From Chloroflexi bacterium ADurb.Bin180 (GTDB lineage Bacteria; Chloroflexota; Anaerolineae; UBA2200): a DNA stretch of 64,000 nt. The notes below the pieces were generated by a model. It ran no database searches. It saw nothing but the letters and a program-made list of their open reading frames with translations, and was not told where the DNA came from. This document shows positions 18,515 through 56,085 of the stretch, piece after piece (position 1 is the stretch's first letter; every line of letters starts with the position of its first letter). The stretch covers positions 21,778 to 85,777 of the forward strand of contig MWCV01000009.1 in the NCBI GenBank assembly GCA_002070215.1. Reading direction: 5' to 3'. The translations under genes were made by a program, and so were the position numbers.

Positions 18515-18610
18515 CACCGGCCTGTTCGCGTCGGCGGTGCCGGGCCACAGCACGGGCGGGGTGCGGAAGCGAGCCACGAGGGGCACCAGGACTCGCGCCG
18601 CCCGTACGGG

Positions 18611-18846: not shown

Positions 18847-18868
18847 GATTCCCTGTCTGCAGGTCGCG

Positions 18869-24800: not shown

Positions 24801-27800
24801 AGGGTCACGTCGTAGGCCACGCTGTTGTTGACGCCCGCAGCGTTGCTAAAGTTAAAGGTGTAGGTCACGATGTCGCCCGGCTTGAGGCCCAGCGGCGCCG
24901 TGGCCGACTTGAGTATGCCAATGTCCGGCTCGACAATGGTCACGTTGACCGTGTTCGAGTCGCGCGGGCCATAGGTCTGGCCGTACTCGTTCTGCCAGGT
25001 GAAGCGTGCCGTATCCGGCACCACCGTGCCGGCGGTGTTGGTGATCAGGTTGCGCACCGTGGCGGTGATAACCACATAGCCCTGCGTGCTCGAAAGGATC
25101 GAGGTCCACGAGGCGCTCACCGTCTGTCCGTTGACCGCCGCGGCCGGGCCGACTCCGCCGTGCGCCGAGGCGCCGTTGACGGTAAAGCGCGCGTCGACCA
25201 CGTCCGTCACCAGCACCGTGTACATCGTGGCGGTGATGGCCGGGCTGGGCACGGTGACCGTGTAGTATAGCTGCTGGCCGATGGTCGCAGTGATGGGCGA
25301 GACGGCCTTGACGATGTGCACGTCCGACGGGGTATAGTGCACGACCGAACCCTGGCCGTCGGCAAAGCTGCGCTCAGTCTGGGTAAAGCCGAACTGCGGA
25401 CCCAGCCCTGGCTGCGAGTCATAGTAGGGCACCACGGCCGTGTTGGTCAGCACCACGCCGGCGCTGATGCTCGGCGAGACCACCGTGCTCACGGTGAGGG
25501 TAAAGGCCTTGCTGACCGTAGGCGCCACGATGGTGCCGTTGAGTGGCGACACCAGCCAGGTGATCACGCCAGTGGCGCCGGGCGTCGGCGCAGAGAGGAT
25601 CGCTGGCGACCCGCTGCCGGGCGACGAGGCCAGAGCATAGCCCTGGTAGACTACGCCGCTCGGGAGGACGTCGCTGATGACAATGTCATAGGCCGGCGTC
25701 TGCGTGCTGTTGGCCACGACCAGGAAGTAGTTGATCGGCGTACCAGCACCGACGATGCTGCCATCGGGCGGGCTGCTGGTCTTGGTGATGGCCAGCGTGG
25801 GCCGGCCAAAGTACGAGTTCACCGTGGCGGTCTGTGAGAACGAGTCGGTCACGGTAAAGGCGCCATTGTCCTGGATGTCCCAGTTGACCGTCTGGCTGTT
25901 GCTGCGGGCCGTGCCGCCTGCCACCACGGCCACTTCGGCACCGGTGCGGCTGCGCCCGGTGAACTGGGCGGTGAAGGTGACCACCACCGTCTGCGTTACC
26001 GCCGTGGTATTGGTAAAGGTGTTCATCCACCACTCGATGGCCTCATTGGCCGTGGTGGTCTTGTAGGTGCCGACGTTGGGGTTGCTGCCGCCGGCGTTGT
26101 TGCCCTGGATCACGCTGTAGGGCACGTTGGTATAGTGCGCCGCCACCGTGTCCAGGGTGCCGGGGAGGGAGCCGCCAATCTGGAACGTGCCGGGCACATA
26201 GTGCAGCCCGGCCTGCATATTGTCCCACTGCCACGGCCAGTAGGCCACCAGGTTCGGCGGCACGGACGTGGTCAGGGTGTACGTTACCAGGTCGCCAATG
26301 CGCAGCTTGGCGGTGAGAGCGCCGCTGGCGCTGGCCGGAGCCACGGCCTTGGCCGTGACCAGGCTGCGCGGCACGACGTCGGCCTGGGCGGTGGTGGTGT
26401 AGGGCCGCTCCTGCCCGGGGTAGGGATTGCCGTCGGGCAGCGACGAGTAGACCGCAGTGACATAGTTCGTAATGGTGATGCCGGCCGGCGCATTGAGCAG
26501 CCGCGCCGTGTAGGTGAGCGCCGTGACCGGCGCCGGCGGCGTCAGCGGAATGCTGGTCAGCCACCAGGTGATCCAGGTGGTGTTGCCCACGGTCCAGCTC
26601 TGGCCGCCCTGGCCGATGCTCTGGATGGCCAGGCCGGTGGGCATCGTGTCGGTCACCACCACGTCATAGGCGGTGGAGGTGCCGGTGTTGGTCAGGTAGA
26701 CGGTATAGTTGAGCAGCGCATTGCCATCGAGGTTGGTGGTGGAACCGGTCGAGCTGACCACCGCCTTGCGCCGCTCCAGGAACGGCTCGACGATGTTCAC
26801 CTGGGCCGTGTCGACAAAGGTGTAGGTCTGGCCGTCGTCGACGTAGCTCATCCGCAGCGTGTTGACACGGCTCACACCGCTCACGTTCGATGGAATGTTG
26901 AGGATGGTGGCCGTGATCACGCCGTCGATCTGCACCGAGCCGGGCAGGTTGCCCAGCGCCCAGACGATGTTGCCCGTGCCGAGGAATGCCGGTGACGAGG
27001 TGGGCGTGTTCGACTCGACGTAGTAGGGCCCGTTCACGTTGCCGTCGACGTCGCTGCTGTAGCGGATGGTCGAGGCGAGGTAGCCCAGCCCGGTCGGCAG
27101 AGTGTCGGTCAGAGTCAGCGAGTTGTAGGTTCCATCGTGGTCTTCCAGCGTGCTGGTAAAGGTGAACACGACGATGGCGCCGATGGTGTCGGTTTGCAGC
27201 GGCGGCCCCTTGTCAAAACTCCGGTTCAGGGTGACATAGGCCGTGTAGCCGGTGGTGGCATAGATGCAGCCCACGGCGCACGAGCCGGTGGCATAGACGC
27301 TGTCGGTCTGCATGCCCGTGGCCGAGACGGTGGCCGTGACCACTGCCTGCCAGGTGCTATGAGCGGCCAGGGTGAAGGGCGGCGACCAGGTGATGACGTT
27401 GCCGCTGATGCCCGGCGTGTTGCTGCCGCCGGGGTAGTTGCCGGGCCCGGCCTGCGGCGAGACAAGACCCGAGCCGAGCAGGTCGGTGACGACCACGTTT
27501 GGCGCATAGATGCCGCTGGTGTTGGTGATGCGCACCGTCCAGGCCACTACCTGGCCGGCGCTGGCCACCTGGGTGAGCGGCGACTTGGTCGCGACCAGCG
27601 TCGGGCTGGCCACGGTCACATTCTGGCTGGCGGTGGCCGTGTAGGAGCCGGTGCCGGCGCAGGTGCCGCTGTCGTCATAAAGCACGTTGATGACGTTGGG
27701 CCCGCCGGCGGGCACCGAGCAGCCGCCGGAGGTCGTGGGGTTGACCACGCGCAGCACGACCGTGGTCACTCCCGTGGGCAGAGGTGTGGAGGTCCAGCGC

Positions 27801-30800
27801 CAGACCGGGGCCGTATCCCCGGCCGATGGGTAGATGTTGGCAGCGGTGCTGGCAGAGACCGTCTCGGCGTAGGCATAGCCGGATGGCAGAGTATCGGTCA
27901 GCCACACGTTGTAGGCGGGCGGGCCGTTGTTGGTGAGGGTTACGGTGAGCACGCCGCCGCACTGGTGGAGCTGCGCTGGCGGCACGTCGGTGGTCAGCCC
28001 CGGCGGGTCAATGACTGGCCTGGTGCGCAGGGTGGAGTGCGCTGTATAGATCTGCTTGCAGGTCGTCTCGGGGCAGCCCCAGGTGGTGGTCATCCAGTTG
28101 GTCGTGTCGACCGCGGTGCAGGCGCCGCTGTTGACCGTGGCCGTGATGTAGGCGGTCCACGAGCTGTTGGTCAGCGTGCCGACGTTCCAGGCAATGACCT
28201 GTCCGCTCTGAAAGCTGGGTGCCGGGCTGGCCGCCACGTAGGTGACGTTGGCCGGCAGCGTGTCGGTGACCAGCGTCTGGTAGGCCGGGGTCTGGCTGCT
28301 GTTGGCCACGGACAGGACCCAGTTGACCGCGTCGCCCGGCTCGGCATAGATCATCGCCGGGTTCTTGGAGATGGTGACTCGCGGCGGGTCAGCCACGAGA
28401 GTGTAGCGGCTTTCGGCCGTGGGCAGCAGGTTGCCGCAGCGGTCCACATAGCTGGCATCGACGACCAGGTGCCCGCCGGCAAAATCGCAGTTCACATAAA
28501 CGCTGTAGCGAATCCAGACCGTCTGGTGCGGGTAGAGCCGCGCCAGAGCGGCGATCTGGCTGGAGGTCCACACCAGCGGGCCGTTCGGCGCGCCGGAGGG
28601 ATCAGAGCCGGCAATCCAGCCGCTGACGGGCGGGGTGGTGCCTTCGCCGATGGCGTACTCGGTGGTGCCGGTCTGGTAGGCCAGGCCGGTGGCCAGGGTT
28701 TCGGTGACCGCGGCCGAATAGACGCTCATCAGGCCAGCGTTGCGCACCGTGGCCGTGACCGTGCGCGTGGCGCAGGTCTGCACCGGTGAGCGCATGATGG
28801 TGGTGTTGAGCAGGGCCGTCACCGGCAGCTCGACGTGCGAATGTTTGACCGGCAGCACGTCGCAGGTGTGGCCCAGGCAGTTCTGGAACCCGCGCAGGGT
28901 GTTGGTCAGGTTGTTGCAGCTCAGGATCTCGGCGACCAGGGTGATCGTGTAGCGCTCGCCGGACTCGATGGCCAGGTCGGGCCAGGTAATGACGTTGCTG
29001 CTGGTGATGGGCACCACGCCCTGTGCCGAGCCGTGCGTCGACAGCACCTGCGAGCTGAGGTAAGCCAGGCCGCTGCCCAGCTCATCGACCAGGGTGATGC
29101 CGTGCACAGCGCCGGCACCAGAGTTGATGGCCGTCAGCGTCCAGGTGACCGTGTCTCCCGCCGCATAGATCACTTCGGGGAACTTGTACAGCAGGGGGGT
29201 CCAGTCCCAGGCCGTGGCCGAGGTCGACGTGCTGGACGAGCAGCGGTCGTCATAGTTCTCGTCGTTGGAGCAGAGGTTGTCGAAATAGACCGTGGCCGTC
29301 AGTTGCCCCTGGGTATCGCAGCGGCGCTGCGTGGGGAACCACATCGTGGCCGTGGTAGCCGTGGCAAAGGCATCGCCGTAGTACACGTCAAAGCCCAGGC
29401 CGTCGGAGATGACCATGACCGGCGTCACCCCGCCGAATGCTGGCGGGCCCAGTGGAGAGAACGAGTTGACCGCCACGCGCATTCGCACGTCATAGGCCGG
29501 AGTGGCACCGCGGGTCAGGGTGATGGTGGGGGTGTACGGAGCGCAGTCGACCACCACGGCGGGCACGCCGCTGATGGCCACGCCCACGGTGGGCGCCGTC
29601 ACATCAAAGAACACGCCCTCGGCCGTGACGCCCGTGTCGCAGGCGGCGCACCAGAAGGTGCCGCCCGCCCCCACGTTGAGGTAGGACCAGTCGTACACGT
29701 TGCGGCCGGCGCAGCCCGTGTCGACCACCGTGGCCCGATAGGTCACGACCATCGTGGCCCCGGGCACAGTCACCGCACAGGTGGGTGAGATGTTGTTGAG
29801 CACGAGCGGATTGGTGCTGGCCACGCTAAAGGTGGCCGGGCAGCTTGTGGCGCCGTTGCTGATGTTGATGGCCGCGCTCCCGCCCACATAGACCAGCGAG
29901 CTCAGCGCTTCGGTAAAGCTCATCCGGCTCCACGCCGGCACCGTGATGTACGAGGAGGCGAACTGGAAGGTGTTGGTAAAGTAGCGCGTGGTGCAGGCCT
30001 CGGCCGCTGCTGGCGAGACAGCCTTGGCTGACGTGGTGCCCCGCTCGCACTGTACATAAGTAGTGGTCGTGCTGGTGCCGTTCACGTTGCAGCCCTGGCA
30101 GTCGCTGCCACTCGCGCCCAGAGTGTTGACTACCGTTTGCCCGCAGCAGGAGCAGACCTCCGGACAGGAAGCGCCGGGGCCAAAGACTACCGTGCGCGAC
30201 CACGGCGAGGTGCTGGTGGTCCAGGTGATGGTGTAGCGCCCGTTGGCCGCGACCACCGTTCCGCCGCCGGCATCGAGCAACTGATAGCCGCAGCCGGCCT
30301 GGAACACGTCGGTGATATAGACCATGCTGGTCAGGTTGGCCGACACCACCGAGAGGGTGTAGGTGATGCGGTCTTCAGCATAGACTTCGGACGGGCCGGT
30401 CTTGGTCACCTGGAGCGAAGGTGTGGCTCCGGTAACGCTCCACGAGCCGCTCTTGGTGGGGAAGGTAAAGGGCGAGGCGCAGCCATCGGGAAAGTTATAG
30501 TACTGCGCCGTGAACAGCAAGGGCCCGCCGGACACGCCGCAGGGCGGTGTGGGCAGGGACAGGGTAAAGGTCAGCACATAGGTGCTGCCCTTGGGAATAT
30601 CGGGCAGATGGAACGCTCCGCCGCTGTAGGGCGCGGAAGAAGCCGTGAGCACCAGCGGCGAAAGGTTGACGCTGAGGGTGGGCGTGTACGCGGTGCCGTC
30701 GCCCGAGTTCACCACCGGTATCTGGAAGGTGCCGCTGCCGGCGCAGTAGCTGATGTTGATCGCCGGCAGGGTATAGTCCAGCGATGGTGCGTCGAGGCGC

Positions 30801-31663
30801 AGGTCCACTGCTGCCTTGGCATACTGCGTCTGGCAGGGGCTGCCGTTGCAGCCCCAGTGGGCCCAGGCCTCGTTCTCCAGGTTGGCGCAGGAAACGACCC
30901 TGGCGCTGAGGCTGAAGGTGTACACTTGGCCTGGTGCCAGGGAGGCGTAGGAGGTGCTGGTGGTGCCGGCCACGAACTGCAAGCCTGAGCCGAGCGCGTC
31001 GGTGACCACCACGTTGGAAACGCGCCCGTATCCGGTGTTTTCGATGTACACCGTCCAGGTGACAATGTCGCCGAGGCCGGCCTTGATCACTGCCGGTTCC
31101 TTACGCAGGGTGATGGCGCCCGGCAGCACGTCAAAATCAAGACGCCGCACGAACAGGTCGTTCTGGGCGTCGGTGATGGTCACCTGGTTCTGGCCCGATG
31201 GCGCGGTGCAGGTAGCGTTGTAGCCAAAGCTGCGCGACGTCGACTGGCCCGGTGCCAGACTGGCCACCGTCGCCGTCCACGAGGTGGGCGTAAAGCCGGC
31301 CGGCATCGTGTCCGTGATCAGCACGCTGGTGGCGGTGATGGTATCGTTGTTGGTAATAAAGACGGTGTAGGTGACCCGGTCGCAGATCTCGACCTTGGTC
31401 GGACCTACCAGGGTGATGCGCAAGTCGATGTCGGGGGCTTGAGCGCCGGCATCGCCGTTCCTGGCCGGCGCCGTCGACGGCGCTGGCGGTTGATGCTGCG
31501 GGAGGAATGATGCCGGAGGTAGAAAGAGCGGGGCGCCGCTCTCTGGCGCGGCAACGGCCGGCTGAGAGAGCACCGTGCCGGCCAGCGCCACCAGACCCAG
31601 GAATGTGATGGCGGCGATGAAGAACAGCACAAAAGACCCACGAGACTCACCCTTGGTTCTCAT
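18869..31663 (-). CDS. giant secreted/surface adhesin-like protein (DUF11 repeats, Cna-B/SdrD-B-like domains, GEVED-motif domains, Pro/Thr linker, DNRLRE-like C-terminal domain)
   Basis: 4265 aa from the ATG at 31663, with a GAAGGGGG SD. It opens with a signal-peptide-like '[33 protein letters not shown]'. The ORF track extends it to 31750. DUF11-like blocks such as '[28 protein letters not shown]' recur. Cna-B-like blocks such as '[36 protein letters not shown]...[15 protein letters not shown]' recur, as does the 'NGEVEDYVL' motif. A PTPTPT linker lies at ~19560-19650. The C-terminus is '...[30 protein letters not shown]...'. Confidence 0.85.
   Translation of the reverse strand: [4264 protein letters not shown]
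20700..24150. repeat. four tandem ~860-bp (~290-aa) repeat units inside the giant gene, each encoding a GEVED-type domain plus a Cna-B-like domain
   Basis: The DWGDLPD-encoding string 'gggcaggtcgccccagtc' occurs at ~21555, ~22420, ~23280 and ~24140. Units 1 and 3 are near-identical at the nucleotide level. The 80-mer 'gtcacggtgatggtggcgctgcggccgggcacgagcggcgtggcaaagatcacgccgtcttcgtcgtcgggcacgccgtt' is exact at ~22195 and ~23915. Confidence 0.85.
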
Positions 31664-31809
31664 GAGACCCCCTTCGCACAACGGTTGTGTTACTGCCAGA
31701 CATACTGTACTCCGTTTGTCCGTTTTTGCCAAACTGGCCATTTCGCGCATTGGGGCGATCGGGTTATAATCTCGCCCAGTCTATCGGTGAAGGGAGGTGC
31801 ATCGCGTCG

Positions 31810-33342
31810 ATGTCACCGGGCAAAATCATCTCCAACTTTTCCCTCTCCAGCCTGGACGGCGACCCCGCCGACAAGACCGCCCTGCTCATCAATCCGCCGG
31901 TCTATGACACCCAGTACTGGGCGCGCTGGTCGCAGCCCTATGGCCTGCTGCGCATCGCCAGCCTGCTCCGCGACGCCGGCTACAAGCGCCGCGAGCTGTA
32001 CGACTTTATGGAAGTGGACCAGAAAGGCCACGTGCACCACCACCGCATCTCGGCCCACGAGTCCTACGCCGAAAAGAGCGAGCCCACCAAGCCGTGCACG
32101 CCCTGGCGCGTGGCCAAGGATGATGCCCGCATCGACTTCTGGAAGTGCCACTTTGGCCACCGGTGGGAGCATTTCGAGCAGTGGCTGGACGACCACGGTT
32201 ACACCGCCGATCACCCGCCCGACGAGATCTATATCTCGGCCATCATGACCTACTGGTGGGAGAGCGTGCGCGACCTGACCGCGCGCCTGCGCAGCCGCTT
32301 TGGCAAAAAGACGGTCATCATCGTCGGCGGCATCTATCCCACCCTCTGCCCGCAGCACTGCGCCGACTATACCTCGGCCGATGTGGTGGTGGCCGGCGAA
32401 GTGGCCGAGGCCAACGACCTCTGGCCCGACCTCTCGCTTTACGAGCGCAAACCCCAGTACGCCATCGTCACGCCGTCGCGCGGCTGCCCCTACAACTGCT
32501 CCTACTGCGCCCAGCGCACGATCAACGCCAGCCGGCGCAAGGTGGCCTACCGCCCGGCCAAGGACATCGTGGCCGAGATTCGCCACCAGATTGACGAGTA
32601 CGGCGTCAAGGACATTGCCTTCTACGCCGATTTCCTGCTGTGGGATTCCGAGAGCAACTTTGAGCAGGTGCTCAAACCGCTCATTGCCGACCAGACCCGC
32701 CACGTGCGCCTGCACGCCCCCGAGGGCCTCGACGTGCGCTATCTCAACCGCTCGCAAAAGCTGGTCGACCTGATGCGCGCGGCCCACTTTGCCAAGCTCT
32801 ACCTGCCGGTGGAGAACATTGACGAGACCTACCTGCGCACGATGAACCGCCGTCATGTGCGGTTGAAGGACTTTGTCGATGCGGTCAAGGCCTGCGAAAA
32901 GGCCGGCTTCAAGCTGCGCAACCTCGAGGTCAATGCTTTTGTGCTGTACGGCCTGCCCCGCGAGTCCATCGACGGTGTGGTCAAGACGGTGCTGTTCGTC
33001 TCCGAGGTGCTGGGCTCGATCATTCCCATGCTCTTTACGCCCGTGCCGACCACCGGCATCTATCAGGACTATGTGCCGTACTTTCGCACTCGCGGCTGGG
33101 ACAAAGAGCTGCAGATGCTCAACGGCAAGGTCTATCCCTTCCTGGAGCTGAACGAGGGCTCGCTGCCCGACTATATCGACCTGCAGCGGCTGATGTTCAT
33201 GCTCAACACGCACTATCGGGATGCGTCGTTCCGGCCCTTTGCCGACAGCCGGGTCAGCAATGCCTTTCGCAACAATCTAACCAACGCCTTCTACAAGTAC
33301 ATCACCACCGGGCTCATGGAGCCGGAGTACCTGGGCTCGTAA
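31810..33342 (+). CDS. B12-binding-domain radical SAM protein
   Basis: 510 aa from the ATG at 31810, with an AAGGGAGGTG SD ~10 nt upstream. The ORF track starts earlier at 31687. The radical-SAM cluster 'CPYNCSYC' (CxxxCxxC) is present. The N-terminus 'KTALLINPPVYDTQYWARWSQPYGLLRIASLLRDAGY' is typical of the B12-binding-like domain of class B rSAM enzymes. It is transcribed divergently from the giant gene across a 147-bp gap. Confidence 0.85.
   Translation: MSPGKIISNFSLSSLDGDPADKTALLINPPVYDTQYWARWSQPYGLLRIASLLRDAGYKRRELYDFMEVDQKGHVHHHRISAHESYAEKSEPTKPCTPWRVAKDDARIDFWKCHFGHRWEHFEQWLDDHGYTADHPPDEIYISAIMTYWWESVRDLTARLRSRFGKKTVIIVGGIYPTLCPQHCADYTSADVVVAGEVAEANDLWPDLSLYERKPQYAIVTPSRGCPYNCSYCAQRTINASRRKVAYRPAKDIVAEIRHQIDEYGVKDIAFYADFLLWDSESNFEQVLKPLIADQTRHVRLHAPEGLDVRYLNRSQKLVDLMRAAHFAKLYLPVENIDETYLRTMNRRHVRLKDFVDAVKACEKAGFKLRNLEVNAFVLYGLPRESIDGVVKTVLFVSEVLGSIIPMLFTPVPTTGIYQDYVPYFRTRGWDKELQMLNGKVYPFLELNEGSLPDYIDLQRLMFMLNTHYRDASFRPFADSRVSNAFRNNLTNAFYKYITTGLMEPEYLGS
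32951..33342. repeat. direct repeat, copy 1 (the functional 3' end of the radical SAM gene); copy 2 is at 40968..41358
   Basis: ~392 bp at ~96% identity to 40968-41358, with about 14 differences. Most differences are synonymous, for example cgggatgcg versus cgcgacgcg. Confidence 0.9.
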
Positions 33343-33681
33343 AGACTGTCAGCGTACCTTTACCGCGAACGTGCCTGACGGGGCGGTCAGTTCCTTGGGT
33401 GGCCGGTCCCGTGCGTCAGGAAAAGTCGGTCCCGGTTACACATTTCGCCAGGCTGTGGAGTCCGAGTAGAATTGGTACGGGCTCAGACGTGCGACCCAAC
33501 ACATTTCGGCGCTCCTGGGGGGACGTCGTTGTGGTAGGTCGCCCAGCGATTTTAGCAGCTTGATGGCTGTCGTGCGGCGCCAGCTAACGCCGGCGATGCG
33601 AATACCGTCTTGTCGTCTGTCTTCTTGTTGCGTACCGCAAAGGTGCGGAAGTGTCTTAACTAGCAACGCAAAGGAGCTACG

Positions 33682-36600
33682 ATGACCGATACCACACCCC
33701 GAGTCACCTTTGTGCAACTCCTCGAACGCGTCAAGTCAGGCAACCATCTGCCTGATTTTTGGGCGGGCATCGACGATACTCGCAAGCTCCACATGCTTGA
33801 AAAGGCCGGCTTCAAGGATGCTCCCTCCATGGTCAAGAAGCCGAAGCGCCGAGCCAACTACCTCAGAATTCACATGCCCGCACTCACGTTTATGTTGAGC
33901 AGTGAGGAGGTGGCGCGCGATGTCGTTTTGGCGTGGCTTGCTGCAAACTCAGACCTGGAGTCTCCTCAGCAAACTGAAGCCCTGGATGACGACAGCAGCG
34001 CTCATCTACTCACGGTAAGCGTGGATTCCTGGAAGGCGTCAGGGCAGTGGTGGAAGGTAGCTCTTGCGTTCTCCACAACCATGCTGCTGGGAGAGCCGGA
34101 TGACCATGCACGCCACCAGATCAGTCAGATGCTTGACCGTTTCGAGACTGGCTTCCCCGAACTGCTCGACACATTGCGTTCAGAGCACGCATCAGAATCC
34201 AAGAACGTGAGTTTGCATCCATCCCTGGACAGACTGATGCATGAGGCCGAGAGACTGTGGCAGCTTCTCGACCAGTTGCAGGCTCAGAGGGAATCGCCTG
34301 TTGCTCTGGCTAAGGTCCCTGGCATGAGCGAACTTCCCGCGTTGGTGGCGGCGGTGACGGAAGCATACAGCAGCGTTCAAGCCGACCTTGTCAGGACGTC
34401 GCAATCGGTCGAATTACCACGCGACGTCGTACCGCCTGCGCAGTGCTCGACTCTGGAGCAACTCCGATCCGCGTATCAGGCAGTGCAGGTTGCGCTGGCT
34501 GAAAGGGAACGCACCGATAGCCTGAGGCGGCTGGCGGAGGACCGCAACCGACTGGCTGATTCGCTCGAGCCGCTGACGCTCCTCGTGAGAAAAGACGGCC
34601 GGCCCATGGCCGAACTGGAATCCGTGCGGGCGCAAGCCAGGCAAATGGCAGACAGTCTCAGGGATGCCCCGTTGGTGCCGGGTTCCGAATCCACACCTGA
34701 ACTGACCACTGACAGCAGCAAGGCATTAGTCGTGTTGTTGAACCTGGTCTCCGGAAAGCTGGAGGACGCCGAAGACTCCGAGGTGGACCATGCTTTCCAG
34801 ACGGTTGCTGACGCGCTGGGTCGCCCGTTAGCCATGGCGGCCTTGCGCGGGCTCCTCGAAGTAGCGGCTGAGCCAAGCAAGGCCAACACCGCCGTTCCGG
34901 CCGCCGACACTGCAGATGAATCGCCAAAGCGTACGCCAACGGAGCAAGCCAAAGCACCGTCGCTGGAGCCATCGGAGGTGCCCGCCACTGCTGTCGCAGT
35001 CCCATCTGTGAAGGACGGCGAACCACCTAGCTCAGGCGGACTACCGACTCAAACGAGTCCTGCAGAATCAGCAAGTGCTCCCAACGAACCTCCGCCTATC
35101 ACGGCACCATCGGGCCCTAGCTCGAACACCCAGCCTCCGGCTGTCTCCCCTGCACCCCATACCGATGAGGGCCCGACCACAGCAGGTGAGGTCGATGCTC
35201 ACTTCTGGCAGATGGTGGAGACAGATCTCCCGGCTGCCTACTGGCTTTCGAGGGCATACGAAGCTATGGAAGAGACGGCGCCTGTTCCTTCGTGGCTGTT
35301 GGCCGCTCTTCAGGGCGCTCGATGGCTCCCCGACGCCCGAGATCATGTGGCCGATGACCTTGCCGAGCTGGCATTGGTGCATGAGGTTGGTCCCAACAAG
35401 GTGCATCGCCTGATGGCTACGGCAGCATCCTTGGTACCGGCTCTTGTCTCGCCCAACACAGGCATGAGTTCGTGGCTGCACGATGCCGGAGTCGATGCAA
35501 TCTACGAGCTTGTAGAGGCAGTTCGCGCATTCGCGGCCCACGGGTATGGGCTTCGCCACGAAGATCTCACCGGAGTGGTGAGTAAGGCACAGGTCAACGC
35601 GGAAATCTCCGATGTCGTGCTGCGTGCAAGGGCTTGGCTCCAGGACGCCCCCAAGCGTAGAATGCCGTACCACCGGGCGACCGAAGTCTGGCGCGTCTGG
35701 ACCAGCCAGACAGGGCCTTTGTACCAAGTCGTCGCCCAAGTGGCGACGAACGATGAATCCACCGTGGACAAAGCTTTGGAGGCCGTCAAGGAGTGGCGAC
35801 GGCGCCCGCTAACCGAACGAGTTCGCAGAGACGATCCCTACCGGAAGAGTCAGGGGAGCAAGCCGATCATCTCCTCCTCCCTGGTGAAGCTTGTGAACGA
35901 ATCGGAAGAAGCCATCGCCGTAGTGGAGGAGTGGGCTGAGCTCCAACGGAGATCACGTGATCTTGAGGAGAGGGGCGACTGGTTCCACGAGCAGGTCACT
36001 CTTCTTGTTGAGAGCGTCAAGGCCACTCTACCTGGATGCTTGGCTGGTCTGACATCGGCTCTGGCCAACGATGCTCCGGTCGGCGAATGCGTAGCGCTAG
36101 AGGAAGTTCTTGCTTCGGTCCATGAGGTCGCGGCCCTGCTCGCGCTCGGGCCCCAACCTTCAAGGCGTCTGCCAAGGCTCACGGGCCCACTCGCCCTCCC
36201 ATCCCCCGACCTGACCGGAGGCCTAGCGCGGGCCCTCCTGTGCTTTCCAGAGTTGCAGCTGGCTGACGATGGCCAACCAACTCCTGAGGCGATGAAGCCC
36301 TTGCTGCAGCTGCTGATCGACCCGGACCTCTCCACTGCGGACTTGCGCCTCCTGCTGCGACGGTGGTTCGAATCACAGGACTACAGGTTCATCGACCAGA
36401 TTCTAGAGGCTCTTGGTGATCAAGCTGACCTAGCAGATCTTCGGCGAACCGCACGCGAGGCCCAGCGCGGCTCCGAGGACATCGTGCTGGAGAGGTGGAA
36501 CCAGGTGTCTGGCAAGCTGGCCCAGGCCGTTGCCGACGAGGTCTTGACCCCGGAGGAGCGGTCTGAGTGTGATGGCGAACTCCAGGACGTCAGGGGAGCT

Positions 36601-39600
36601 ACTGGCAGGTACAACTACCGGGTCCTCCACCAACGGCTTTCTGCCCTGGAGAATCGCGTCGATAGGGCGCGGCAAGAGAGGCTGAACGCACAGCAGCAGG
36701 AATGGAAGTCCGTCGCGGAGAGGCTGCCTAGGTCTATCACTGACGCCGCCACCCGCACACTGATCATCTCTGCTGTTGATCAATCGCTCGAGCGGCGAGA
36801 CACAGTGGTTGTCGCCGACTTGATCGCCCATCTAAAGGCTTCTCTGGATGCCGGTCACCTGCCCGATACTTCCCTCTTCATGTCGACTCGGCCGACTGGG
36901 GATGCTTTCGCCGAGTTCGTGGCCGGCGTGCCGGAGTTGAGTGAGATGATCGGCACCAGAGGTTTGGCGAAACTTGCCAACGCAATTGCTGCTGCCGGCA
37001 AGGCTGAGCGGCGAATCGGTCCGCTTTCCTTCAACCTGCCAGCGCCTCGGCTCAAGGAGGCGCGTAGCGCCTTGCTGGCTTGGAGCGAGTTGACCAGTCT
37101 TCCCGTAGATGGGCTGGTGAACCCGACTCCACTTGCCGTCGTTCTGCGCTACCTTGGCTTTACCATCAGTGGGGAGTGTGGGGAGGTCGTCGAGCAGCGT
37201 GAGCACGACCGCGACTGGTCGCACTTGACCGTGAGGATGTCCGCTGCAGACCTTTCGCCGATTCCCGCCTTCGGCTCACTTCAGGACAACCGCTACAGCA
37301 TTGTCTGCCAGTGGGAGCGACCGTCAGCTGACGTCATTGGCAGCATGTTGCGCCACCTGAGGTTGATTGGCAAGAGCGTTGTCCTTCTCTACTTCGGACG
37401 CCTGACCGTTAACCAAAGGTGGCAACTGGCACAACAGGCCCGCAAAGAACGGCTTTCTATGGCTGTGCTTGATTCGAATCTCCTGCTTTACCTGTCGCAG
37501 GAAAGGGGCTCTCGGCTGCCTGTTTTTCTGCAGTGCTCCCTTCCCTTCGCGGTCGTCAATCCTTACGTGCCCACCGGCACCGTGCCGCGCGAGATGTTCT
37601 TCGGCCGCCAGGACATGATCCAGGCTATTCAGTCGCCTTCAGGACCTGCTATGGTCTTCGGCGGTCGACAGTTGGGCAAGTCCGCCCTGCTGCGGCGCGT
37701 TCAGAACGAGTACGATCGGCCTGAACGAGAGCAGTTTGCTTTGTACGAGGACATCAAGCTGATCGGTGATCCTACCAGCCGGCAGCCCTGTGAGGCGCTA
37801 TGGGTTAGGCTCGCGGACGGTCTGATCCGACATGGGGTACTCAAGTCACGGGGCGAGACTCCAGACAAGATACTCGCACAGATCAGAGATGCCATGGAGA
37901 ACCATCCTGGTCGGCGGGTGCTCGTACTCTTGGATGAAGCCGACATGTTCTTGAAATCCGACTCTGATCAGGGCTTCACCGTGGTCAGTGAGCTCAAGCG
38001 ACTGATGGACGACACTCAGCGACGCTTCAAGGTGGTGTTTGCTGGACTCCATAACGTGCAGCAGTATCAGGGTATTCCCAACCAGCCGCTTGCGCACCTG
38101 GATAGTCTGGTGGTGAATCCACTGGAGCCGCGAGCCGCACGTCAGCTGGTGGAGATCCCAATGAGAGCGCTCGGTTTTCGTTTCTCAGATCAGCAGGCAG
38201 TTCCACGGGTTTTGGCCTACACCAACTACCACCCTGGGCTGATTCAGCTCTTTTGTCACGCGTTGGTCGAGAGGCTCCTAAGGCGCCCAGCGAGTCCTGC
38301 CGCTGACTTGGAGGTCAGGCAGAGTGACGTGGAAGACGTCTACCGCTCAGAAGAGGTTCAGCGGGCGCTCCGCGAGCGCTTTGAATGGACCCTTGCTCTG
38401 GACGCCCGATACCAGTTGGTGGCGCTGGCTCTCGTACATGATCAAATGGCCGAACACGATGGCTACGGCCGCGCCTACAGCCTGTCCGATGTGCTCTCGA
38501 TTTGTCGTGGCTGGTGGCGTCAGGGCTTTGAGAAAGTTCGCCTTGACCAACTGCAAGGCGTGCTCGATGAGATGTGTGGCCTTGGGGTGCTAGTCCGGAA
38601 CACGATAGACCATACTTATCGGCTTCGAAGCCCCAACCTGGTGCGCCTCATGGGAAGCCCAGAAGACATCGAGAATGCGCTCCTTGCCCTCGGAGATCAA
38701 CAGCCTGCCATCGAGGGGGTCATTGGCGAGAGCCACCACGCGGCGCTCGATGATTGCGCCTCTATCTACAGTCCGTTCACCTACTCTCAGGCTCGAACGC
38801 TCAATGCCAAGCGATTCGGAGTCAGCCTGATGTTCGGATCGGAAGCCCTCGGACTGGCAGACGCGAAATTGGCGTCACAGCAGTTCGTTGCGCCCGAGGT
38901 GCTGGCCGACAAGGCCGGCCGCTGGGATGAGTTGAGCTTCCTGGCTCGGTCAGGGGAAGCCATGCGTCACGCACTGCAGAAGCTCTTGGCACAGTACCTG
39001 AATGTGCCGCGGCTGGTCGCCTACCGCGAAATGCACGGCACGAGCGAGCAACTGGCTGAGCAAGTGAACTCGGCGATCGAGTTCTGCACCAAACACGCCC
39101 GAAGCCAGAGGCAGTGGTTGCGGGTCCTTCTGGCGTTCGATCCGGCGGCGACATGGGAATGGCTGAGTGTTCCCGTGGCAAGAAGACAAGAGCTCGAACG
39201 CTCGGCAGATGCCCTGGTCTGGCTTCGGCGGTGGGACGAGGATGGCCTCAAGCAAATCACGGAACAGCATGGCAAGCGAGTCAATTCGCGTGTCCTGCAA
39301 AGGCTACTGCGCGAGACGGGCGGCTGGCCCTTGCTGCTACGACGTCTTGTCGCGGGGTGGTCTTCTGAGCTGGACGATCCTGAGGAGGGGCTCGAGCGGC
39401 TCTTGAGTGACCTACTTGAGCCAAGCGGCGCGCCACCCATTCAGTTCTGGAAGTCGCTCGGAGTAATGGAAGTCCCGCTTGCCGAGCAGGTGCTTCGTGC
39501 GATCGCCGTCCTGGGAGAACCCGTGGAGCCGGGTGATCTGCCGTCACTAATGGAGGGTCAGGTGGTCCCCTGCGAAGGGGAGTGCGCATCGCTATGTGAG

Positions 39601-39696
39601 TATCTGGCACAATTGGGGGTCTTGGAGGAGTCCGGTACGGGCTTGGTAGTCGAGCCCACTGTATCGAGATTGCTCGCTGCGGTTGGGACGGCGTGA
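33682..39696 (+). CDS. giant (2004-aa) protein with a central AAA+/STAND-type P-loop NTPase domain flanked by long, mostly alpha-helical regions of unknown function
   Basis: An AAAGGAG SD lies 6 nt upstream of the ATG at 33682. The Walker A context 'FFGRQDMIQAIQSPSGPAMVFGGRQLGKSALLRRV' (nt ~37600-37700) has the FxGR...GxxxxGKS arrangement typical of STAND/AAA_16 NTPases. Walker B is 'RVLVLLDEADMF' (nt ~37915-37950). The N-terminal ~1250 aa and C-terminal ~500 aa have no motif I can recognise. Confidence 0.8.
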   Translation: MTDTTPRVTFVQLLERVKSGNHLPDFWAGIDDTRKLHMLEKAGFKDAPSMVKKPKRRANYLRIHMPALTFMLSSEEVARDVVLAWLAANSDLESPQQTEALDDDSSAHLLTVSVDSWKASGQWWKVALAFSTTMLLGEPDDHARHQISQMLDRFETGFPELLDTLRSEHASESKNVSLHPSLDRLMHEAERLWQLLDQLQAQRESPVALAKVPGMSELPALVAAVTEAYSSVQADLVRTSQSVELPRDVVPPAQCSTLEQLRSAYQAVQVALAERERTDSLRRLAEDRNRLADSLEPLTLLVRKDGRPMAELESVRAQARQMADSLRDAPLVPGSESTPELTTDSSKALVVLLNLVSGKLEDAEDSEVDHAFQTVADALGRPLAMAALRGLLEVAAEPSKANTAVPAADTADESPKRTPTEQAKAPSLEPSEVPATAVAVPSVKDGEPPSSGGLPTQTSPAESASAPNEPPPITAPSGPSSNTQPPAVSPAPHTDEGPTTAGEVDAHFWQMVETDLPAAYWLSRAYEAMEETAPVPSWLLAALQGARWLPDARDHVADDLAELALVHEVGPNKVHRLMATAASLVPALVSPNTGMSSWLHDAGVDAIYELVEAVRAFAAHGYGLRHEDLTGVVSKAQVNAEISDVVLRARAWLQDAPKRRMPYHRATEVWRVWTSQTGPLYQVVAQVATNDESTVDKALEAVKEWRRRPLTERVRRDDPYRKSQGSKPIISSSLVKLVNESEEAIAVVEEWAELQRRSRDLEERGDWFHEQVTLLVESVKATLPGCLAGLTSALANDAPVGECVALEEVLASVHEVAALLALGPQPSRRLPRLTGPLALPSPDLTGGLARALLCFPELQLADDGQPTPEAMKPLLQLLIDPDLSTADLRLLLRRWFESQDYRFIDQILEALGDQADLADLRRTAREAQRGSEDIVLERWNQVSGKLAQAVADEVLTPEERSECDGELQDVRGATGRYNYRVLHQRLSALENRVDRARQERLNAQQQEWKSVAERLPRSITDAATRTLIISAVDQSLERRDTVVVADLIAHLKASLDAGHLPDTSLFMSTRPTGDAFAEFVAGVPELSEMIGTRGLAKLANAIAAAGKAERRIGPLSFNLPAPRLKEARSALLAWSELTSLPVDGLVNPTPLAVVLRYLGFTISGECGEVVEQREHDRDWSHLTVRMSAADLSPIPAFGSLQDNRYSIVCQWERPSADVIGSMLRHLRLIGKSVVLLYFGRLTVNQRWQLAQQARKERLSMAVLDSNLLLYLSQERGSRLPVFLQCSLPFAVVNPYVPTGTVPREMFFGRQDMIQAIQSPSGPAMVFGGRQLGKSALLRRVQNEYDRPEREQFALYEDIKLIGDPTSRQPCEALWVRLADGLIRHGVLKSRGETPDKILAQIRDAMENHPGRRVLVLLDEADMFLKSDSDQGFTVVSELKRLMDDTQRRFKVVFAGLHNVQQYQGIPNQPLAHLDSLVVNPLEPRAARQLVEIPMRALGFRFSDQQAVPRVLAYTNYHPGLIQLFCHALVERLLRRPASPAADLEVRQSDVEDVYRSEEVQRALRERFEWTLALDARYQLVALALVHDQMAEHDGYGRAYSLSDVLSICRGWWRQGFEKVRLDQLQGVLDEMCGLGVLVRNTIDHTYRLRSPNLVRLMGSPEDIENALLALGDQQPAIEGVIGESHHAALDDCASIYSPFTYSQARTLNAKRFGVSLMFGSEALGLADAKLASQQFVAPEVLADKAGRWDELSFLARSGEAMRHALQKLLAQYLNVPRLVAYREMHGTSEQLAEQVNSAIEFCTKHARSQRQWLRVLLAFDPAATWEWLSVPVARRQELERSADALVWLRRWDEDGLKQITEQHGKRVNSRVLQRLLRETGGWPLLLRRLVAGWSSELDDPEEGLERLLSDLLEPSGAPPIQFWKSLGVMEVPLAEQVLRAIAVLGEPVEPGDLPSLMEGQVVPCEGECASLCEYLAQLGVLEESGTGLVVEPTVSRLLAAVGTA

Positions 39697-40967
39697 TCCT
39701 AAGCCGTGATAGATTTGAACTGCCCGGCGTCCAGTCATGGGTCGCCGGGATAGCCGATGACCTCGACAAGGGCCAGACAGTATGCCTGCTGCTCCCACAG
39801 CCAGTCGAAGCCGGATTGTTCTGGCCGCCGATTCGCGAGCGCCTGGGCAAGCTTGGAAATAGCATCGCAGAGGTGCATACGCCGGGCATTCCCACGGGTG
39901 CCAGGATGCCGTCGGAGCTTGCCAAGGCTCTAGGCGTCAAGTGGCCCGCATCGACAACTCCGCGCACGTTGCCTGAGCTTGTCCGGAACCCAGAACTACC
40001 GGGGATCATCCATCTGGAGGACTGGGCGGAACTTGCACCTGCGGCTCAGCACGAGTGGCTTACCATCGCTCGCCGCTGGGCCGACTACTCCCGGTCGGCT
40101 TCCTGCGAGGGAGAGGGCTCCACAGCTCTCCTTATCATAGCCAACGCGACCGACAACCTGCAGCCAACGCTAGACTCCGATGTGGCGTTTCGGATCCGAC
40201 TGTGGTGGCAGGTTCCGTCCGTGCTGGAGACGATGCAGCTCTGCCGCATCACAGCGGAGGGGAGTTGGCGCACTCCGCTCCACGAATGGCGGGAGCATAT
40301 ACTGCCCTCATTGGTGGCAGGTGACCTGGAGGCTGCCACCGAGATATGGGACGATTCTCTGTGGGATGTGGACTCACTTCTGCCGCGATTGGATAGCTTG
40401 GCTGAAAAGAGAGGTTGGACGCGAGGGACGATAGAGCCATTGACCAACGGGTGGTTCACCGATCAGAGCCCGGTAGTGGGTGCTGAGTCGGGCCTGGAGC
40501 CACCCCGCAGGCTCTTGAGTCTTTGGGCGCGAGGTCTGGTATGCAGCACTCTGGAGTACGGGCCCACTTTGTCACCGGTCGCGCTTGCCGTTCTGGGGAA
40601 TCGTCGTGAGATTGAGCGGCGTCTGTGGCGCGGGCAGGTGGGCCTGCTCATGCCCATAATCGACGAGCTGCGGCTCGATATCTGTGGGCGTTGGGCTCGC
40701 CGCTTCGGCGCAGATTGGCCGACGAGATGGACTCTTCCAGATTCAGAAGAGGAGGCGCGGGCGATCTACGCTAGTCCGCTGAACTGCGGCTGGGGGCACA
40801 TGGAAACGCTCCTGCGAGGTAGGGCCGAACTGATACGGGAGCGTCCTCTGCTGCCAATGATCGCGCATTCGCGCTACGTGCGCAACGAGCTGGCTCACTC
40901 TCGTCCAGTAAGGTACTATGACTTTAAGGAGCTGCTCGATGCCCGCGGGCTGCTGCCCAGGCTCTAG
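39693..40967 (+). CDS. hypothetical 424-aa protein translationally coupled to the giant NTPase gene
   Basis: Its GTG start at 39693 overlaps the upstream TGA stop (GTGA). It has no recognisable catalytic motif, only a possible degenerate nucleotide-binding-like segment 'GQTVCLLLP...ALLIIANATD'. Its stop codon sits exactly at the junction with the repeat copy. Confidence 0.7.
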   Translation: MILSRDRFELPGVQSWVAGIADDLDKGQTVCLLLPQPVEAGLFWPPIRERLGKLGNSIAEVHTPGIPTGARMPSELAKALGVKWPASTTPRTLPELVRNPELPGIIHLEDWAELAPAAQHEWLTIARRWADYSRSASCEGEGSTALLIIANATDNLQPTLDSDVAFRIRLWWQVPSVLETMQLCRITAEGSWRTPLHEWREHILPSLVAGDLEAATEIWDDSLWDVDSLLPRLDSLAEKRGWTRGTIEPLTNGWFTDQSPVVGAESGLEPPRRLLSLWARGLVCSTLEYGPTLSPVALAVLGNRREIERRLWRGQVGLLMPIIDELRLDICGRWARRFGADWPTRWTLPDSEEEARAIYASPLNCGWGHMETLLRGRAELIRERPLLPMIAHSRYVRNELAHSRPVRYYDFKELLDARGLLPRL

Positions 40968-41358
40968 CCTGCCGCGCGAGTCCATCGACGGTGTGGTCAA
41001 GACGGTGCTGTTCGTCTCCGAGGTGCTGGGCTCGATCATTCCCATGCTCTTTACGCCCGTGCCGACCACCGGCATCTATCAGGACTATGTGCCGTACTTT
41101 CGCACTCGCGGCTGGGACAAAGAGCTGCAGATGCTCAACGGCAAGGTCTATCCCTTCCTGGAGCTGAACGAGGGCTCGCTGCCCGACTATATCGACCTGC
41201 AGCGGCTGATGTTCATGCTCAACACGCACTATCGCGACGCGTCGTTCCGGCCCTTTGCCGACAGCCGGGTCAGCAACGCGTTTCGGAGCAACCTGAGCAA
41301 CGCGTTCTACAAGTACATCACCACCGGGCTCATGGAGCCGGAATACCTGGGCTCCTAG
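40968..41358 (+). pseudogene. displaced 3' fragment of a radical SAM gene (direct-repeat copy 2)
   Basis: It encodes '...LPRESIDGVVKTVLFVSEVLGSIIPMLFTPVPTTGIYQDYVPYFRTRGWDKELQMLNGKVYPFLELNEGSLPDYIDLQRLMFMLNTHYRDASFRPFADSRVSNAFRSNLSNAFYKYITTGLMEPEYLGS*'. This is about 98% identical at protein level to the C-terminal ~130 aa of the 31810..33342 product. It has no start codon or upstream part. Confidence 0.85.
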
Positions 41359-53119: not shown

Positions 53120-53155
53120 GGTGGAGCGCAATGAACCTCAGGTGGTGGCGGTAGA

Positions 53156-54706
53156 ATGAGCGAAGGACGGTTCTTGCTCGGCGTGGACGTGGGTACCTAC
53201 GGCTCCAAGGGAGTCGTGGTGAACCAGGCTGGCCGCGTGCTGGCCACTAGCTTTGCCGAGCATGGCGTAGACAGTCCTCGTCTGGGCTGGTACGAGCATG
53301 ACCCGGAGCGTGTCTGGTGGAACGACCTGACGCGGATCATCCAGGAGCTGCTGGATCGTTCGGGCATCGACCCGCGCGAGGTCGCCGCACTGGGCGTGAG
53401 CGGTCTGAGTCCTGAAGTGACCGCGGTGGATGCCGAGGGGCGAGTGCTGCGCCCGGCCATCCTGTACTCGGACACTCGGGCGGCCGCTGAGTCCGAGCGC
53501 ATCATAGAGAAGCTGGGCGAGCAGCGGATCCTGGACGTCGGCGGGAACGCGCTCTCGGTGCAGTCCGCCGGCCCCAAGGTGCTCTGGCTCCGCGATCATG
53601 AGCCCGAGGTCTTTGGCCGAACCCGCTACATCTATGACGCGCCCAGCTACCTGACCTACCTTCTCACCGGCGTGTCGCGCATGGACTATGGGCAGGCCTG
53701 CTGGTTTCACCCGCTGTTCAACATCCGCGACCTTAAGTGGGATGAGAGCGTGTGCACCGAGCTGGGCATCTCCAGCAGCATCTTTCCTCCGCTCGGGTGG
53801 GCCACGGAGGTCGCGGGCGGCATCTCGCGGAGCGCCGCACAGGCCACGGGGCTGGTGGAAGGAACGCCGGTGATCACCGGAACCGGTGACGGCCCGGCCG
53901 AGCAGGTGGCCGTCGGTGCCTCGGAAGAGGGAGAGGCGGCGTTGGTGTACGGCAGCACGATGTGCCTGCTCGCGCTGTCCAACACGCCGCGAGTGCACGC
54001 GCGGGCGGCGGCGGCCATCGGAGCGGTTCCCGGTCGCCGCTTGCTGATGACCTACATGAACGCCTCCGCGGCGCTGACACGCTGGTTTCGCGACAACTTT
54101 GGTCAGGTGGAACGCGAGGCAGAAGCGAGCCTCGGCATCAACGCCTACCAGCTGCTCAGCGCCGAGGCCGCCCAGGTTCCTCCCGGGTCCGAGGGCCTGG
54201 TGGTACTGCCTTACTTTGCCGGCGAAGGCCACCCGATCCTAGATACATCAGCCCGCGGCTTGATCCTGGGGCTGACCCTGTCGCACAAGCGCGGCCACCT
54301 CTACCGCGCCTTGCTCGAGGGAGTGGCCTACGGCCTGCGTCATAACCTGGAGACGTTCCAGGAGGCCGGTCTGCCCATCCGGAGATACCTGGCCGTGGGC
54401 GGCGGGACCAAGAGCAAGCTGTGGACGCAGATCGTGAGTGACGTTGTAGGCATCAACCAGGAGCTGGTATCCGTGCCCTTCGGGGCGCCGTTCGCTGACG
54501 CCTATCTGGCCGGCTACGGCGTGGGGATGTTCCGCGATATGCGGACCCTGCGCGACGAATGGGCGCAGATTTCCGGACGGGTGTCTCATCAGCCCGAGCT
54601 GTGGCCCGTGTACGACCGCTATTATCAGGTATACCGTGCGCTTTACGAACCACTGAAGAAACATATGCATACGCTGGCCGAATTGTCTATGGCAGCAAGA
54701 GATTGA
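53156..54706 (+). CDS. FGGY-family carbohydrate kinase, copy 1
   Basis: The N-terminus 'LLGVDVGTYGSKGVVV' is the FGGY phosphate-1 motif. It is 516 aa with the conserved FGGY_N and FGGY_C layout. Confidence 0.85.
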   Translation: MSEGRFLLGVDVGTYGSKGVVVNQAGRVLATSFAEHGVDSPRLGWYEHDPERVWWNDLTRIIQELLDRSGIDPREVAALGVSGLSPEVTAVDAEGRVLRPAILYSDTRAAAESERIIEKLGEQRILDVGGNALSVQSAGPKVLWLRDHEPEVFGRTRYIYDAPSYLTYLLTGVSRMDYGQACWFHPLFNIRDLKWDESVCTELGISSSIFPPLGWATEVAGGISRSAAQATGLVEGTPVITGTGDGPAEQVAVGASEEGEAALVYGSTMCLLALSNTPRVHARAAAAIGAVPGRRLLMTYMNASAALTRWFRDNFGQVEREAEASLGINAYQLLSAEAAQVPPGSEGLVVLPYFAGEGHPILDTSARGLILGLTLSHKRGHLYRALLEGVAYGLRHNLETFQEAGLPIRRYLAVGGGTKSKLWTQIVSDVVGINQELVSVPFGAPFADAYLAGYGVGMFRDMRTLRDEWAQISGRVSHQPELWPVYDRYYQVYRALYEPLKKHMHTLAELSMAARD

Positions 54707-56038: not shown

Positions 56039-56085
56039 CAACTGCGCATTGGCAGCGCAGGTCGCCGGGGAGAGCCGCTAAAGCA

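Follow-up and report, generated by a model that had tools for sequence, protein, structure and literature searches.

Within a 64,000-nt window of the metagenome-assembled genome of Chloroflexi bacterium ADurb.Bin180 (GCA_002070215.1, contig MWCV01000009.1, positions 21,778 to 85,777 of the forward strand), which is the whole stretch of DNA analysed here, two overlapping genes encode what appears to be a previously undescribed, ATP-controlled nuclease system. The first specifies a 2004-residue protein carrying an intact AAA+ ATPase and, behind it, a second module of related fold that lacks a P-loop; the second specifies a 424-residue partner in which an inactive AAA+ fold is joined to a candidate HEPN domain (Table 1). 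With about even confidence, we regard the pair as a single module in which an ATP-switched sensor protein controls a nuclease subunit and acts against viruses or plasmids. The effector is likely to be the HEPN ribonuclease (RNase) domain of the partner, and hence to lie outside the large protein.

The large gene opens with an ATG that follows a Shine-Dalgarno sequence (AAAGGAG) by 5 nt, and the same 2004-aa gene is called in an independent public annotation of the same organism (locus L007); GCA_022707605.1 and an independent Logan assembly likewise have gene calls for both members of the pair. The partner, whose product is 100% identical to BWY10_00846, starts with a GTG inside the TGA stop of the large gene (GTGA), giving a 4-bp overlap. 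A direct repeat of ~390 nt exactly flanks the two genes together with the intergenic region in front of them, and corresponds to the 3′-terminal part of the B12-binding radical-SAM gene at 31687-33342. The two copies agree at every position over their first ~270 nt and differ at ~12 positions over the last ~120 nt, and both run in frame to a stop. The junction between the partner and the radical-SAM fragment recurs in the assemblies L007 and L008, which are independent, and so does not stem from an error in this contig. The pattern fits acquisition via recombination inside the radical-SAM gene. An earlier note, made by a model from the letters of this DNA, had proposed the 2004-aa open reading frame (ORF), its translational coupling to a downstream partner and a repeat-bounded insertion, and all three are borne out here. 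No integrase lies beside the pair and no tRNA gene occurs within the window, and an empty site, with the radical-SAM gene directly joined to the right flank, was not found in metagenome contigs. The two repeat copies look like the footprint of recombination between two diverged radical-SAM alleles. The radical-SAM gene was also considered as a member of the system and rejected, as none recurs near homologues.

The pair belongs to a broadly distributed family. A pattern scan over one genome per species returned at least 528 family loci, from Chloroflexota, Bacillota, Latescibacterota, Binatia, Thermodesulfobacteriota, Cyanobacteria, Myxococcota, Acidobacteriota, Actinomycetota, Planctomycetota, Pseudomonadota and others, and an exhaustive phmmer search at E <= 1e-30 yielded no fewer than 2,132 clusters at 50% identity. 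Of the 150 phmmer matches listed, almost all are 1400-2100 aa long with the core at the C-terminus, and homologue matches reach E-values of 1e-91 to 1e-278, which excludes chance. At 91 loci the large ORF is mostly 1700-2450 aa, and a homologue of the partner lies directly downstream in 57 of them, usually with the 4-bp overlap and across about a dozen phyla; the closest homologue (P0072) is likewise followed by a partner. The pair is thus kept in other genomes, as the earlier note had asked of a genuine system. Streptomyces, cyanobacteria, myxobacteria and Chloroflexi are rich in family members, the distribution within genera is patchy, and 29 plasmid records carry members. A phage origin was rejected, with no match in any of 50,697 phage genomes and only five partial matches in IMG/VR. 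Some genomes hold two members, namely L001 (Streptomyces), L017/L020 (one Caldilineaceae genome) and L087; in L001 and L087 the two lie no more than ~10 kb apart, and of the two copies in L001 one is preceded by a 777-aa gene, whereas the other has a HEPN-type partner.

The ATPase of the large protein retains its catalytic motifs. The string 'FFGRQDMIQAIQSPSGPAMVFGGRQLGKSALLRRV' spans aa 1306-1340 and holds the Walker A motif GGRQLGKS (aa 1327-1334, nt 37660-37683), and VLVLLDEADMF spans aa 1413-1423, with LLDEAD at aa 1416-1421 (Walker B, nt 37927-37944). Both strings had been picked out beforehand and lie where they had been placed; the Walker A and Walker B motifs are invariant or nearly so among homologues, and an hhGRxxE-type motif preceding the P-loop (FFGRQDM, aa 1306-1312) is also conserved. 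The sole Pfam match is AAA_22 (aa 1321-1461, E 5.8e-9, above the curated cut-off), and no nuclease, protease, TIR, SIR2 or TPR model matched the large protein, in agreement with the initial description, in which the regions on either side of the NTPase showed no such signatures. Neither protein gave a significant NCBIfam match, coverage by Pfam and NCBIfam models ends with the ATPase domain, and PDB sequence searches with aa 1-1180 and aa 1181-2004 yielded nothing meaningful.

An AlphaFold2 (AF2) model of aa 1181-2004, built on a 25-sequence alignment (predicted local distance difference test, pLDDT, 78.9), places a small alpha/beta domain (~1204-1290) ahead of the P-loop ATPase (~1300-1535), which is followed, up to ~aa 1675, by a helical lid and winged helix; next come another alpha/beta domain (~aa 1710-1850) and a further helical region that ends in a winged-helix hairpin. 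The nearest structural neighbours of the ATPase module are archaeal PF01637 ATPases and ORC/Cdc6, which are DNA-loading AAA+ proteins; PDB entry 9zll was also matched. The C-terminal ~500 residues, formerly left unassigned, are modelled as a second AAA+-lid-winged-helix module, which has no GK[ST] motif and aligns weakly but colinearly, across 280 columns, with the first (hhalign E 1.6e-4, probability 50%). From the model and this alignment, the second module probably represents the ATPase module in duplicated, degenerate form. Identity to close homologues amounts to 53-68% in the ATPase, 47-53% in the small alpha/beta domain, 41-56% in the lid and winged helix, 30-52% in the alpha/beta part of the second module (aa 1690-1880) and 21-33% in its C-terminal part (aa 1881-2004), as well as 25-43% in the middle region and 8-36% at the N-terminus.

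The N-terminal ~1200 residues, which are taken to be a sensing or scaffolding part, comprise a variable region, a low-complexity linker and a conserved middle region. The last of these (aa ~506-1190) contains the near-invariant residues E1046, F1079, W1134 and G1159 and has no Pfam or PDB match; a Pfam scan of the N-terminal parts of 38 homologues likewise revealed no recurrent family for it, returning only sigma-70 in cyanobacteria and weak coiled-coil-type matches. As a lone query, aa 1-430 gave no matches. The N-terminal heads vary. In eight of the 38 sampled homologues, all cyanobacterial, a complete sigma-70 (regions 1.2, 2, 3 and 4; E down to 3.6e-26) lies at the N-terminus within the same ORF, and one such member is annotated as a single coding sequence (CDS) on Brasilonema plasmid pBOCT2. 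The window N-terminus showed no significant relation to these sigma-containing N-termini (hhalign, probability 0.5%). A further head occurs on a plasmid of Azospirillum oryzae (NZ_CP054617.1; L092 1702-11472), where a 3256-aa member (WP_149198910.1) bears the annotation 'RNaseH domain-containing protein': the family's middle region and core are matched by its last ~1750 residues, and its first ~1400 are extra to the family unit. Because these heads, and the nuclease partners described below, vary around the middle region and core, the conserved unit is ~1500 aa, joined to an N-terminal head and a nuclease partner that both vary.

Several smaller observations concern the same N-termini. In cyanobacterial members coupled to a PLD-SNF2 helicase, the sigma-70 part (~aa 235-500) is preceded by a ~230-aa domain of no assigned family. 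The Azospirillum gene is flanked by genes annotated 'ATP-binding protein' and 'AAA family ATPase', and similar annotations are found on plasmids of Microvirga and Bradyrhizobium. Heads that are unrelated in other respects have in common, at their extreme N-termini, a short pattern that ends in L-x-x-[LK]-[AL]-G-[FYI] and may be due to chance, the hhalign result being non-significant (probability 0.5%); it occurs at 33700-33830 of the window (aa ~19-48), at aa 4-33 in L045 and at aa ~20-40 in L065, with examples such as LHMLEKAGF, LFQKLGY and LFFTLGY and a Streptomyces consensus of LLxxLGI.

The partner supplies the candidate catalytic domain. An AF2 model and structural searches assign its aa 1-300, which lack a Walker A motif, to an AAA+ base, lid and winged helix of Cdc6-like fold. 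At the other end, R-[N/D/H/T]-x-x-[A/S]-H occurs ~25 residues from the C-terminus in 57/57 partners, as RNxxxH in 51 and R[D/H/T]xxxH in six; R327, R397 and H402 are invariant, and R310, W312 and P321 nearly so (>=90% of sequences). In HEPN domains the Rx4-6H motif closes the penultimate helix, and its arginine is followed by a polar residue (N/D/H) (PMC3710099). In the partner model (pLDDT 85-92 in this part), the penultimate helix (378-401) ends at R397-A401, H402 falls in a loop and the last helix spans 408-420, so that the motif conforms to the HEPN pattern both in its position and in its polar residue. When scanned singly, 34 of 55 partner C-termini match PF18731 (HEPN_Swt1) at E<=1 (best 4.9e-5), and a few match DUF4145, HEPN_MAE_28990, Ribonuc_2-5A or Abi_2. 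For the window protein the assignment, which draws on homologues, motif and model together, is well supported but not proven. PDB searches with the partner profiles A3 and A4 gave nothing meaningful. We do not claim the partner as a paralogue of the second module of the large protein, given that no profile-profile relation was detected between it and either module.

Other loci replace or supplement the HEPN partner. In filamentous cyanobacteria, a ~1100-aa protein with PLD and SNF2 helicase domains is coupled to the large gene in its place; in Actinobacteria, a ~680-740-aa MBL/beta-CASP/RMMBL nuclease lies downstream of the large gene; and in two Acidobacteria an MBL/beta-CASP/RMMBL nuclease lies upstream, besides the HEPN partner. 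Streptomyces members have a ~770-aa upstream gene without a recognisable domain. Judged from these sequences, the effector of the family is exchangeable. A conserved third gene was sought among 123 flanking genes from 41 loci and rejected: the scan matched 147 Pfam families, none of them in more than three proteins. The module is self-contained.

A role in immunity is suggested by the exchangeable nuclease partners together with the patchy, mobile distribution. In the mechanism that we envisage, a cue from an invading phage or plasmid would act on the N-terminal region, and ATP binding would drive assembly of a hetero-oligomer in which the partner, through its dead AAA+, docks on the large protein's AAA+ modules, much as BrxB does on BrxC. 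Two HEPN domains could thereby be brought together to form a composite Rx4H active site, and the ensuing RNA cleavage would either halt growth of the infected cell or destroy transcripts of the invader. A conflict system fits best because of the conserved ATP-dependent switch, the exchangeable nucleases, the variable head, the patchy and plasmid-borne distribution, the occasional presence of more than one copy in a genome and the fresh, repeat-bounded insertion seen here.

Several points weigh against this interpretation. The sensor role of aa 1-1180 is an assumption, and docking through AAA+ pairing is proposed by analogy only, as the partner and the large-protein modules share no profile relation. 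The HEPN fragment of the window itself gives no PF18731 match at E<=1, and structural searches with the partner were dominated by its AAA+ part, so that they did not address the HEPN fold. The cyanobacterial sigma-70 fusions could indicate control of transcription instead of immunity. Finally, the association with defence islands is weak. The pair had been placed in a defence-rich island, and the window does hold Hma, PDC-S11 and PDC-S68; however, these lie ~16-32 kb upstream, the nearest of them ~16 kb off, with a 12.9-kb surface-protein gene and the radical-SAM gene in between. The flanks of the 41 loci are heterogeneous, most sampled neighbours being metabolic or unrelated (e.g. L096), and enrichment of defence genes appears weak. 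Defence-type neighbours are sporadic (N6_N4_Mtase, BrxL, PDDEXK_9, AAA_21), although some loci do lie in defence islands, such as L001 with McrBC, N6 methylase and PIN genes and L010 with McrBC.

Comparison with known systems helps to delimit the family. PADLOC-DB v2 returned no system match (Avs, BREX, Hma, Mads etc.), the large protein matching only mad8 at E 0.01 over 48 residues and the partner nothing, and the pair is not described in the 2013 HEPN survey, the 2020 conflict-systems paper, the 2026 BREX survey or the 2026 STAND survey. With no PADLOC, Pfam or NCBIfam match beyond the ATPase domain, the expectation of a two-component system of undescribed type is supported.

The suggestion of a STAND/AAA+-like NTPase, as in Avs proteins, stands in part. 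The protein does contain an intact P-loop ATPase of the STAND/ORC-like assemblage: like STAND and Avs proteins it combines Walker A and B with an hhGRxxE-type motif, and its NTPase is followed by a helical domain and winged helix, as in the NOD module. Among 25 homologues, AAA_16 matches five and nSTAND1 one, at E 1e-4; the window protein matches only AAA_22 above cut-off. However, its nearest folds are PF01637 and ORC/Cdc6, and its order is not that of STAND proteins, in which an effector, the NTPase and a C-terminal repeat sensor follow one another (PMC13581612). Instead, ~1300 residues precede the ATPase, a degenerate AAA+ module and no TPR, WD40 or LRR repeats follow it, and the effector resides on a separate protein; PADLOC Avs models did not match the pair. 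An alternative assignment to regulators of the MalT/AfsR/LAL type, which the earlier note had named as potentially refuting, is unsupported, as the protein has no LuxR-type helix-turn-helix (HTH) or SARP output domain and lower structural similarity to that group.

The large protein is structurally closest to the ORC/Cdc6-PF01637 group, with which it shares the AAA+ base, lid and winged helix, yet members of that group are stand-alone ATPases of 350-400 aa with neither a giant N-terminal region nor a nuclease partner, and the corresponding profiles score below cut-off (ATPase_2, E 0.061, 13.6 bits versus 33.2; TIGR02928, E 0.037, 12.9 bits versus 181). A further likeness is to BREX-related systems, whose DUF499 ATPases are often fused to Swt1/Abi2-type HEPN domains and work with a PLD-SNF2 helicase (PMC12839542; PMC3710099). 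The effector types found with DUF499/HmaC, Swt1-type HEPN and PLD-SNF2, are those of the present family, and an active ATPase with an inactive AAA+ partner recalls BrxC-BrxB. In contrast, neither the large protein nor the 25 homologues match a DUF499 or BrxC profile; no methyltransferase or PglZ is conserved beside the pair; its HEPN domain is C-terminal on the inactive AAA+ protein, whereas that of DUF499 proteins is N-terminal on the active one; and the large protein, roughly double BrxC in size, has N-terminal regions unrelated to it. The partner also differs from Swt1-like and Abi2 HEPN proteins in that its HEPN is joined to an inactive Cdc6-like AAA+ and winged helix, a fusion not described in the papers named above, and in the residues R310, W312, P321 and R327, which are specific to its family. 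The pair, which would work much as Avs/NLR or BrxC-BrxB systems do, departs from STAND/Avs in its domain order and its lack of a repeat sensor, and from BREX and its relatives in its lack of DUF499, methyltransferase and PglZ, and is best read as a variant of NTPase-controlled nuclease immunity not described in those papers.

These likenesses nevertheless bear on a different mode of action, which we consider unlikely: a DNA-directed, BREX-related restriction system without a methyltransferase, in which the ORC/Cdc6-like ATPase loads or polymerises on DNA in the manner of ORC, MuB, TnsC or BrxC, takes foreign or abnormal DNA, and not a phage protein, as its signal, and recruits the nuclease partner to that DNA. 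The DNA-loading AAA+ proteins among the best structural neighbours, the two or three winged-helix domains in the pair, the partner set of Swt1-type HEPN and PLD-SNF2 that matches the DUF499/BrxC-like, BREX-related set (PMC12839542; PMC3710099), and an active/inactive AAA+ pairing that mirrors BrxC-BrxB (the 9zll matches) would all be accommodated. However, the DUF499 and BrxC profiles fail to match, the conserved presence of no methyltransferase, PglZ or other BREX gene nearby would leave discrimination of self from non-self unexplained, and the HEPN and RMMBL partners suggest an RNA target.

The sigma-70 fusions bring to mind another explanation, a transcription-coupled regulator or RNA-surveillance machine whose ATPase acts on RNA polymerase or nascent RNA and whose RNases process or degrade particular transcripts during stress or development of filamentous and multicellular bacteria. 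We find this distinctly unlikely. The in-frame, complete sigma-70 in eight of 38 sampled homologues, one of them a single CDS on a Brasilonema plasmid, would be expected of such a regulator, as would partners that are RNA-type nucleases, the abundance in Streptomyces, cyanobacteria, myxobacteria and Chloroflexi, and the many loci among ordinary genes; yet the family is patchy within genera, occurs on plasmids and is repeat-bounded here, its exchangeable nucleases are typical of conflict systems, and most members have no sigma or HTH domain. The presence of two copies in L017/L020, L001 and L087 is what diversifying immune genes would show. Immunity and transcription might also be combined, in a scheme that we put forward as speculative and improbable: the family would be an AAA+ immune machine guarding the transcription apparatus, its variable N-terminus (sigma-70 in cyanobacteria; an RNaseH-annotated domain in Alphaproteobacteria) serving as a host-like bait or adaptor through which phage hijackers are detected, as by the integrated decoys of plant NLRs, with a tandem active/inactive AAA+ and a dead-AAA+ nuclease subunit that cuts RNA or DNA on an ORC-like rather than NLR-like chassis.

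Lastly, although HEPN domains are frequent toxins (PMC3710099) and the plasmid occurrence, the translational coupling with the putative toxin downstream and the repeat-bounded insertion here would suit an addiction or stabilisation module, in which the large ATPase restrains a HEPN RNase toxin and loss of the element kills the cell, we judge this highly improbable, since a conserved ATPase of 2000 aa with intact motifs exceeds what an antitoxin needs, most copies are chromosomal with no evident mobile-element genes adjoining, and SNF2 helicase and beta-CASP partners are not typical toxins.

Should the preferred reading of the pair as an ATP-switched immune module be correct, a widespread family that is now almost everywhere annotated 'hypothetical protein' would be added to the class of NTPase-plus-nuclease systems. 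Three features set its layout apart from that of Avs and NLR proteins: the N-terminal region is very large, an active and a degenerate AAA+ module stand in tandem, and the effector acts in trans and carries a dead AAA+. A two-gene system with BrxC-BrxB-like logic and an assayable RNase output could be a tractable model, and through the in-frame sigma-70 fusions a connection of such systems with RNA polymerase becomes directly testable. In annotation, the family can be defined by the core module (aa 1191-2004) together with a partner ending in RNxxxH.

Table 1. Coordinates of the gene pair, its protein regions and other features of the window, with sigma-70-carrying relatives in the last row (coordinates there refer to the respective loci).
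Feature	Coordinates	Strand	Remarks
Direct repeat, copy 1	32953..33342	+	3′ end of the intact radical-SAM gene (radical SAM and B12-binding domains); left cassette boundary
Upstream non-coding region	33343..33681	+	Promoter-like site 33445-33472 and Shine-Dalgarno 33670-33676; consensus matches only
Large AAA+ protein gene, 2004 aa	33682..39696	+	ORF, homologues, independent annotation
Variable N-terminal region, aa 1-400	33682..34881	+	Common only to the two closest homologue clusters
Pro/Ala/Ser/Thr-rich low-complexity linker, aa 401-505	34882..35196	+	Composition; low conservation
Conserved middle region, aa 506-1190	35197..37251	+	Colinear, 22-31% identity in most homologues
Small conserved alpha/beta domain, aa 1191-1295	37252..37566	+	PAFGS motif, invariant D1264; precedes ATPase
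AAA+ P-loop ATPase core, aa 1296-1535	37567..38286	+	Walker A/B; sensor-1 region KVVFAGLH 38029-38052
Helical lid and winged helix of ATPase module, aa 1536-1680	38287..38721	+	
Second alpha/beta, helical and winged-helix module, aa 1690-2004	38749..39693	+	No Walker A; AF2 topology and hhalign
Partner gene, 424 aa	39693..40967	+	aa 1-300, inactive Cdc6/ORC-like AAA+ base, lid, winged helix
Swt1-like HEPN domain (predicted), partner aa 304-424	40602..40964	+	RNELAH (R397, N398, H402) at 40881-40898
Direct repeat, copy 2	40968..41358	+	Duplicated radical-SAM 3′ fragment with own TAG stop, beginning right after the partner stop; right cassette boundary
Hma PLD and SNF2 helicase	1280-4906	-	PLD_Helicase E 1.9e-69, HmaA 1.9e-50
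Hma DUF1156 methyltransferase	4947-7865	-	HmaB 1.9e-81
Hma DUF499 ATPase	8310-11372	-	HmaC 7.4e-74
PDC-S11 candidate defence gene	12139-13275	-	PADLOC E 1.8e-11
PDC-S68, 1261-aa SF1 helicase	13965-17750	-	Full-length match, E 0, 1569 bits
4293-aa surface-type protein	18869-31750	-	SdrD_B, DUF11, GEVED, CarboxypepD_reg and CBM96 domains
Sigma-70-carrying cyanobacterial members	L065 5084-12454; L094 4600-11469		Also L045, L054, L061, L067, L075, L076, L079, L080, L085, L089

The Hma genes at 1280-11372 (minus strand) make up a complete three-gene Hma/BREX-related system in a separate operon, more than 22 kb from the pair, and the N-terminal PLD on the Hma helicase fits the 'Type-2 BR' layout (PMC12839542). 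The surface-protein gene contains internal repeats of ~858 nt at 21049-24241, and the long opposite-strand ORFs over it are presumably artefacts of high G+C. Overlapping direct repeats of ~72 nt, rich in 'CCCGTACGGGAGGCG'-like units, lie at 18580-18785, between the PDC-S68 helicase and the surface-protein gene, and 45 nt at 11763-11807 occur a second time, at 96% identity, at 18864-18908. To the right of the pair, 53138-54706 and 56065-57636, 2927 nt apart, are 70-78% identical over several hundred nt (repeat families D7, D11 and D12) and presumably represent paralogous genes.

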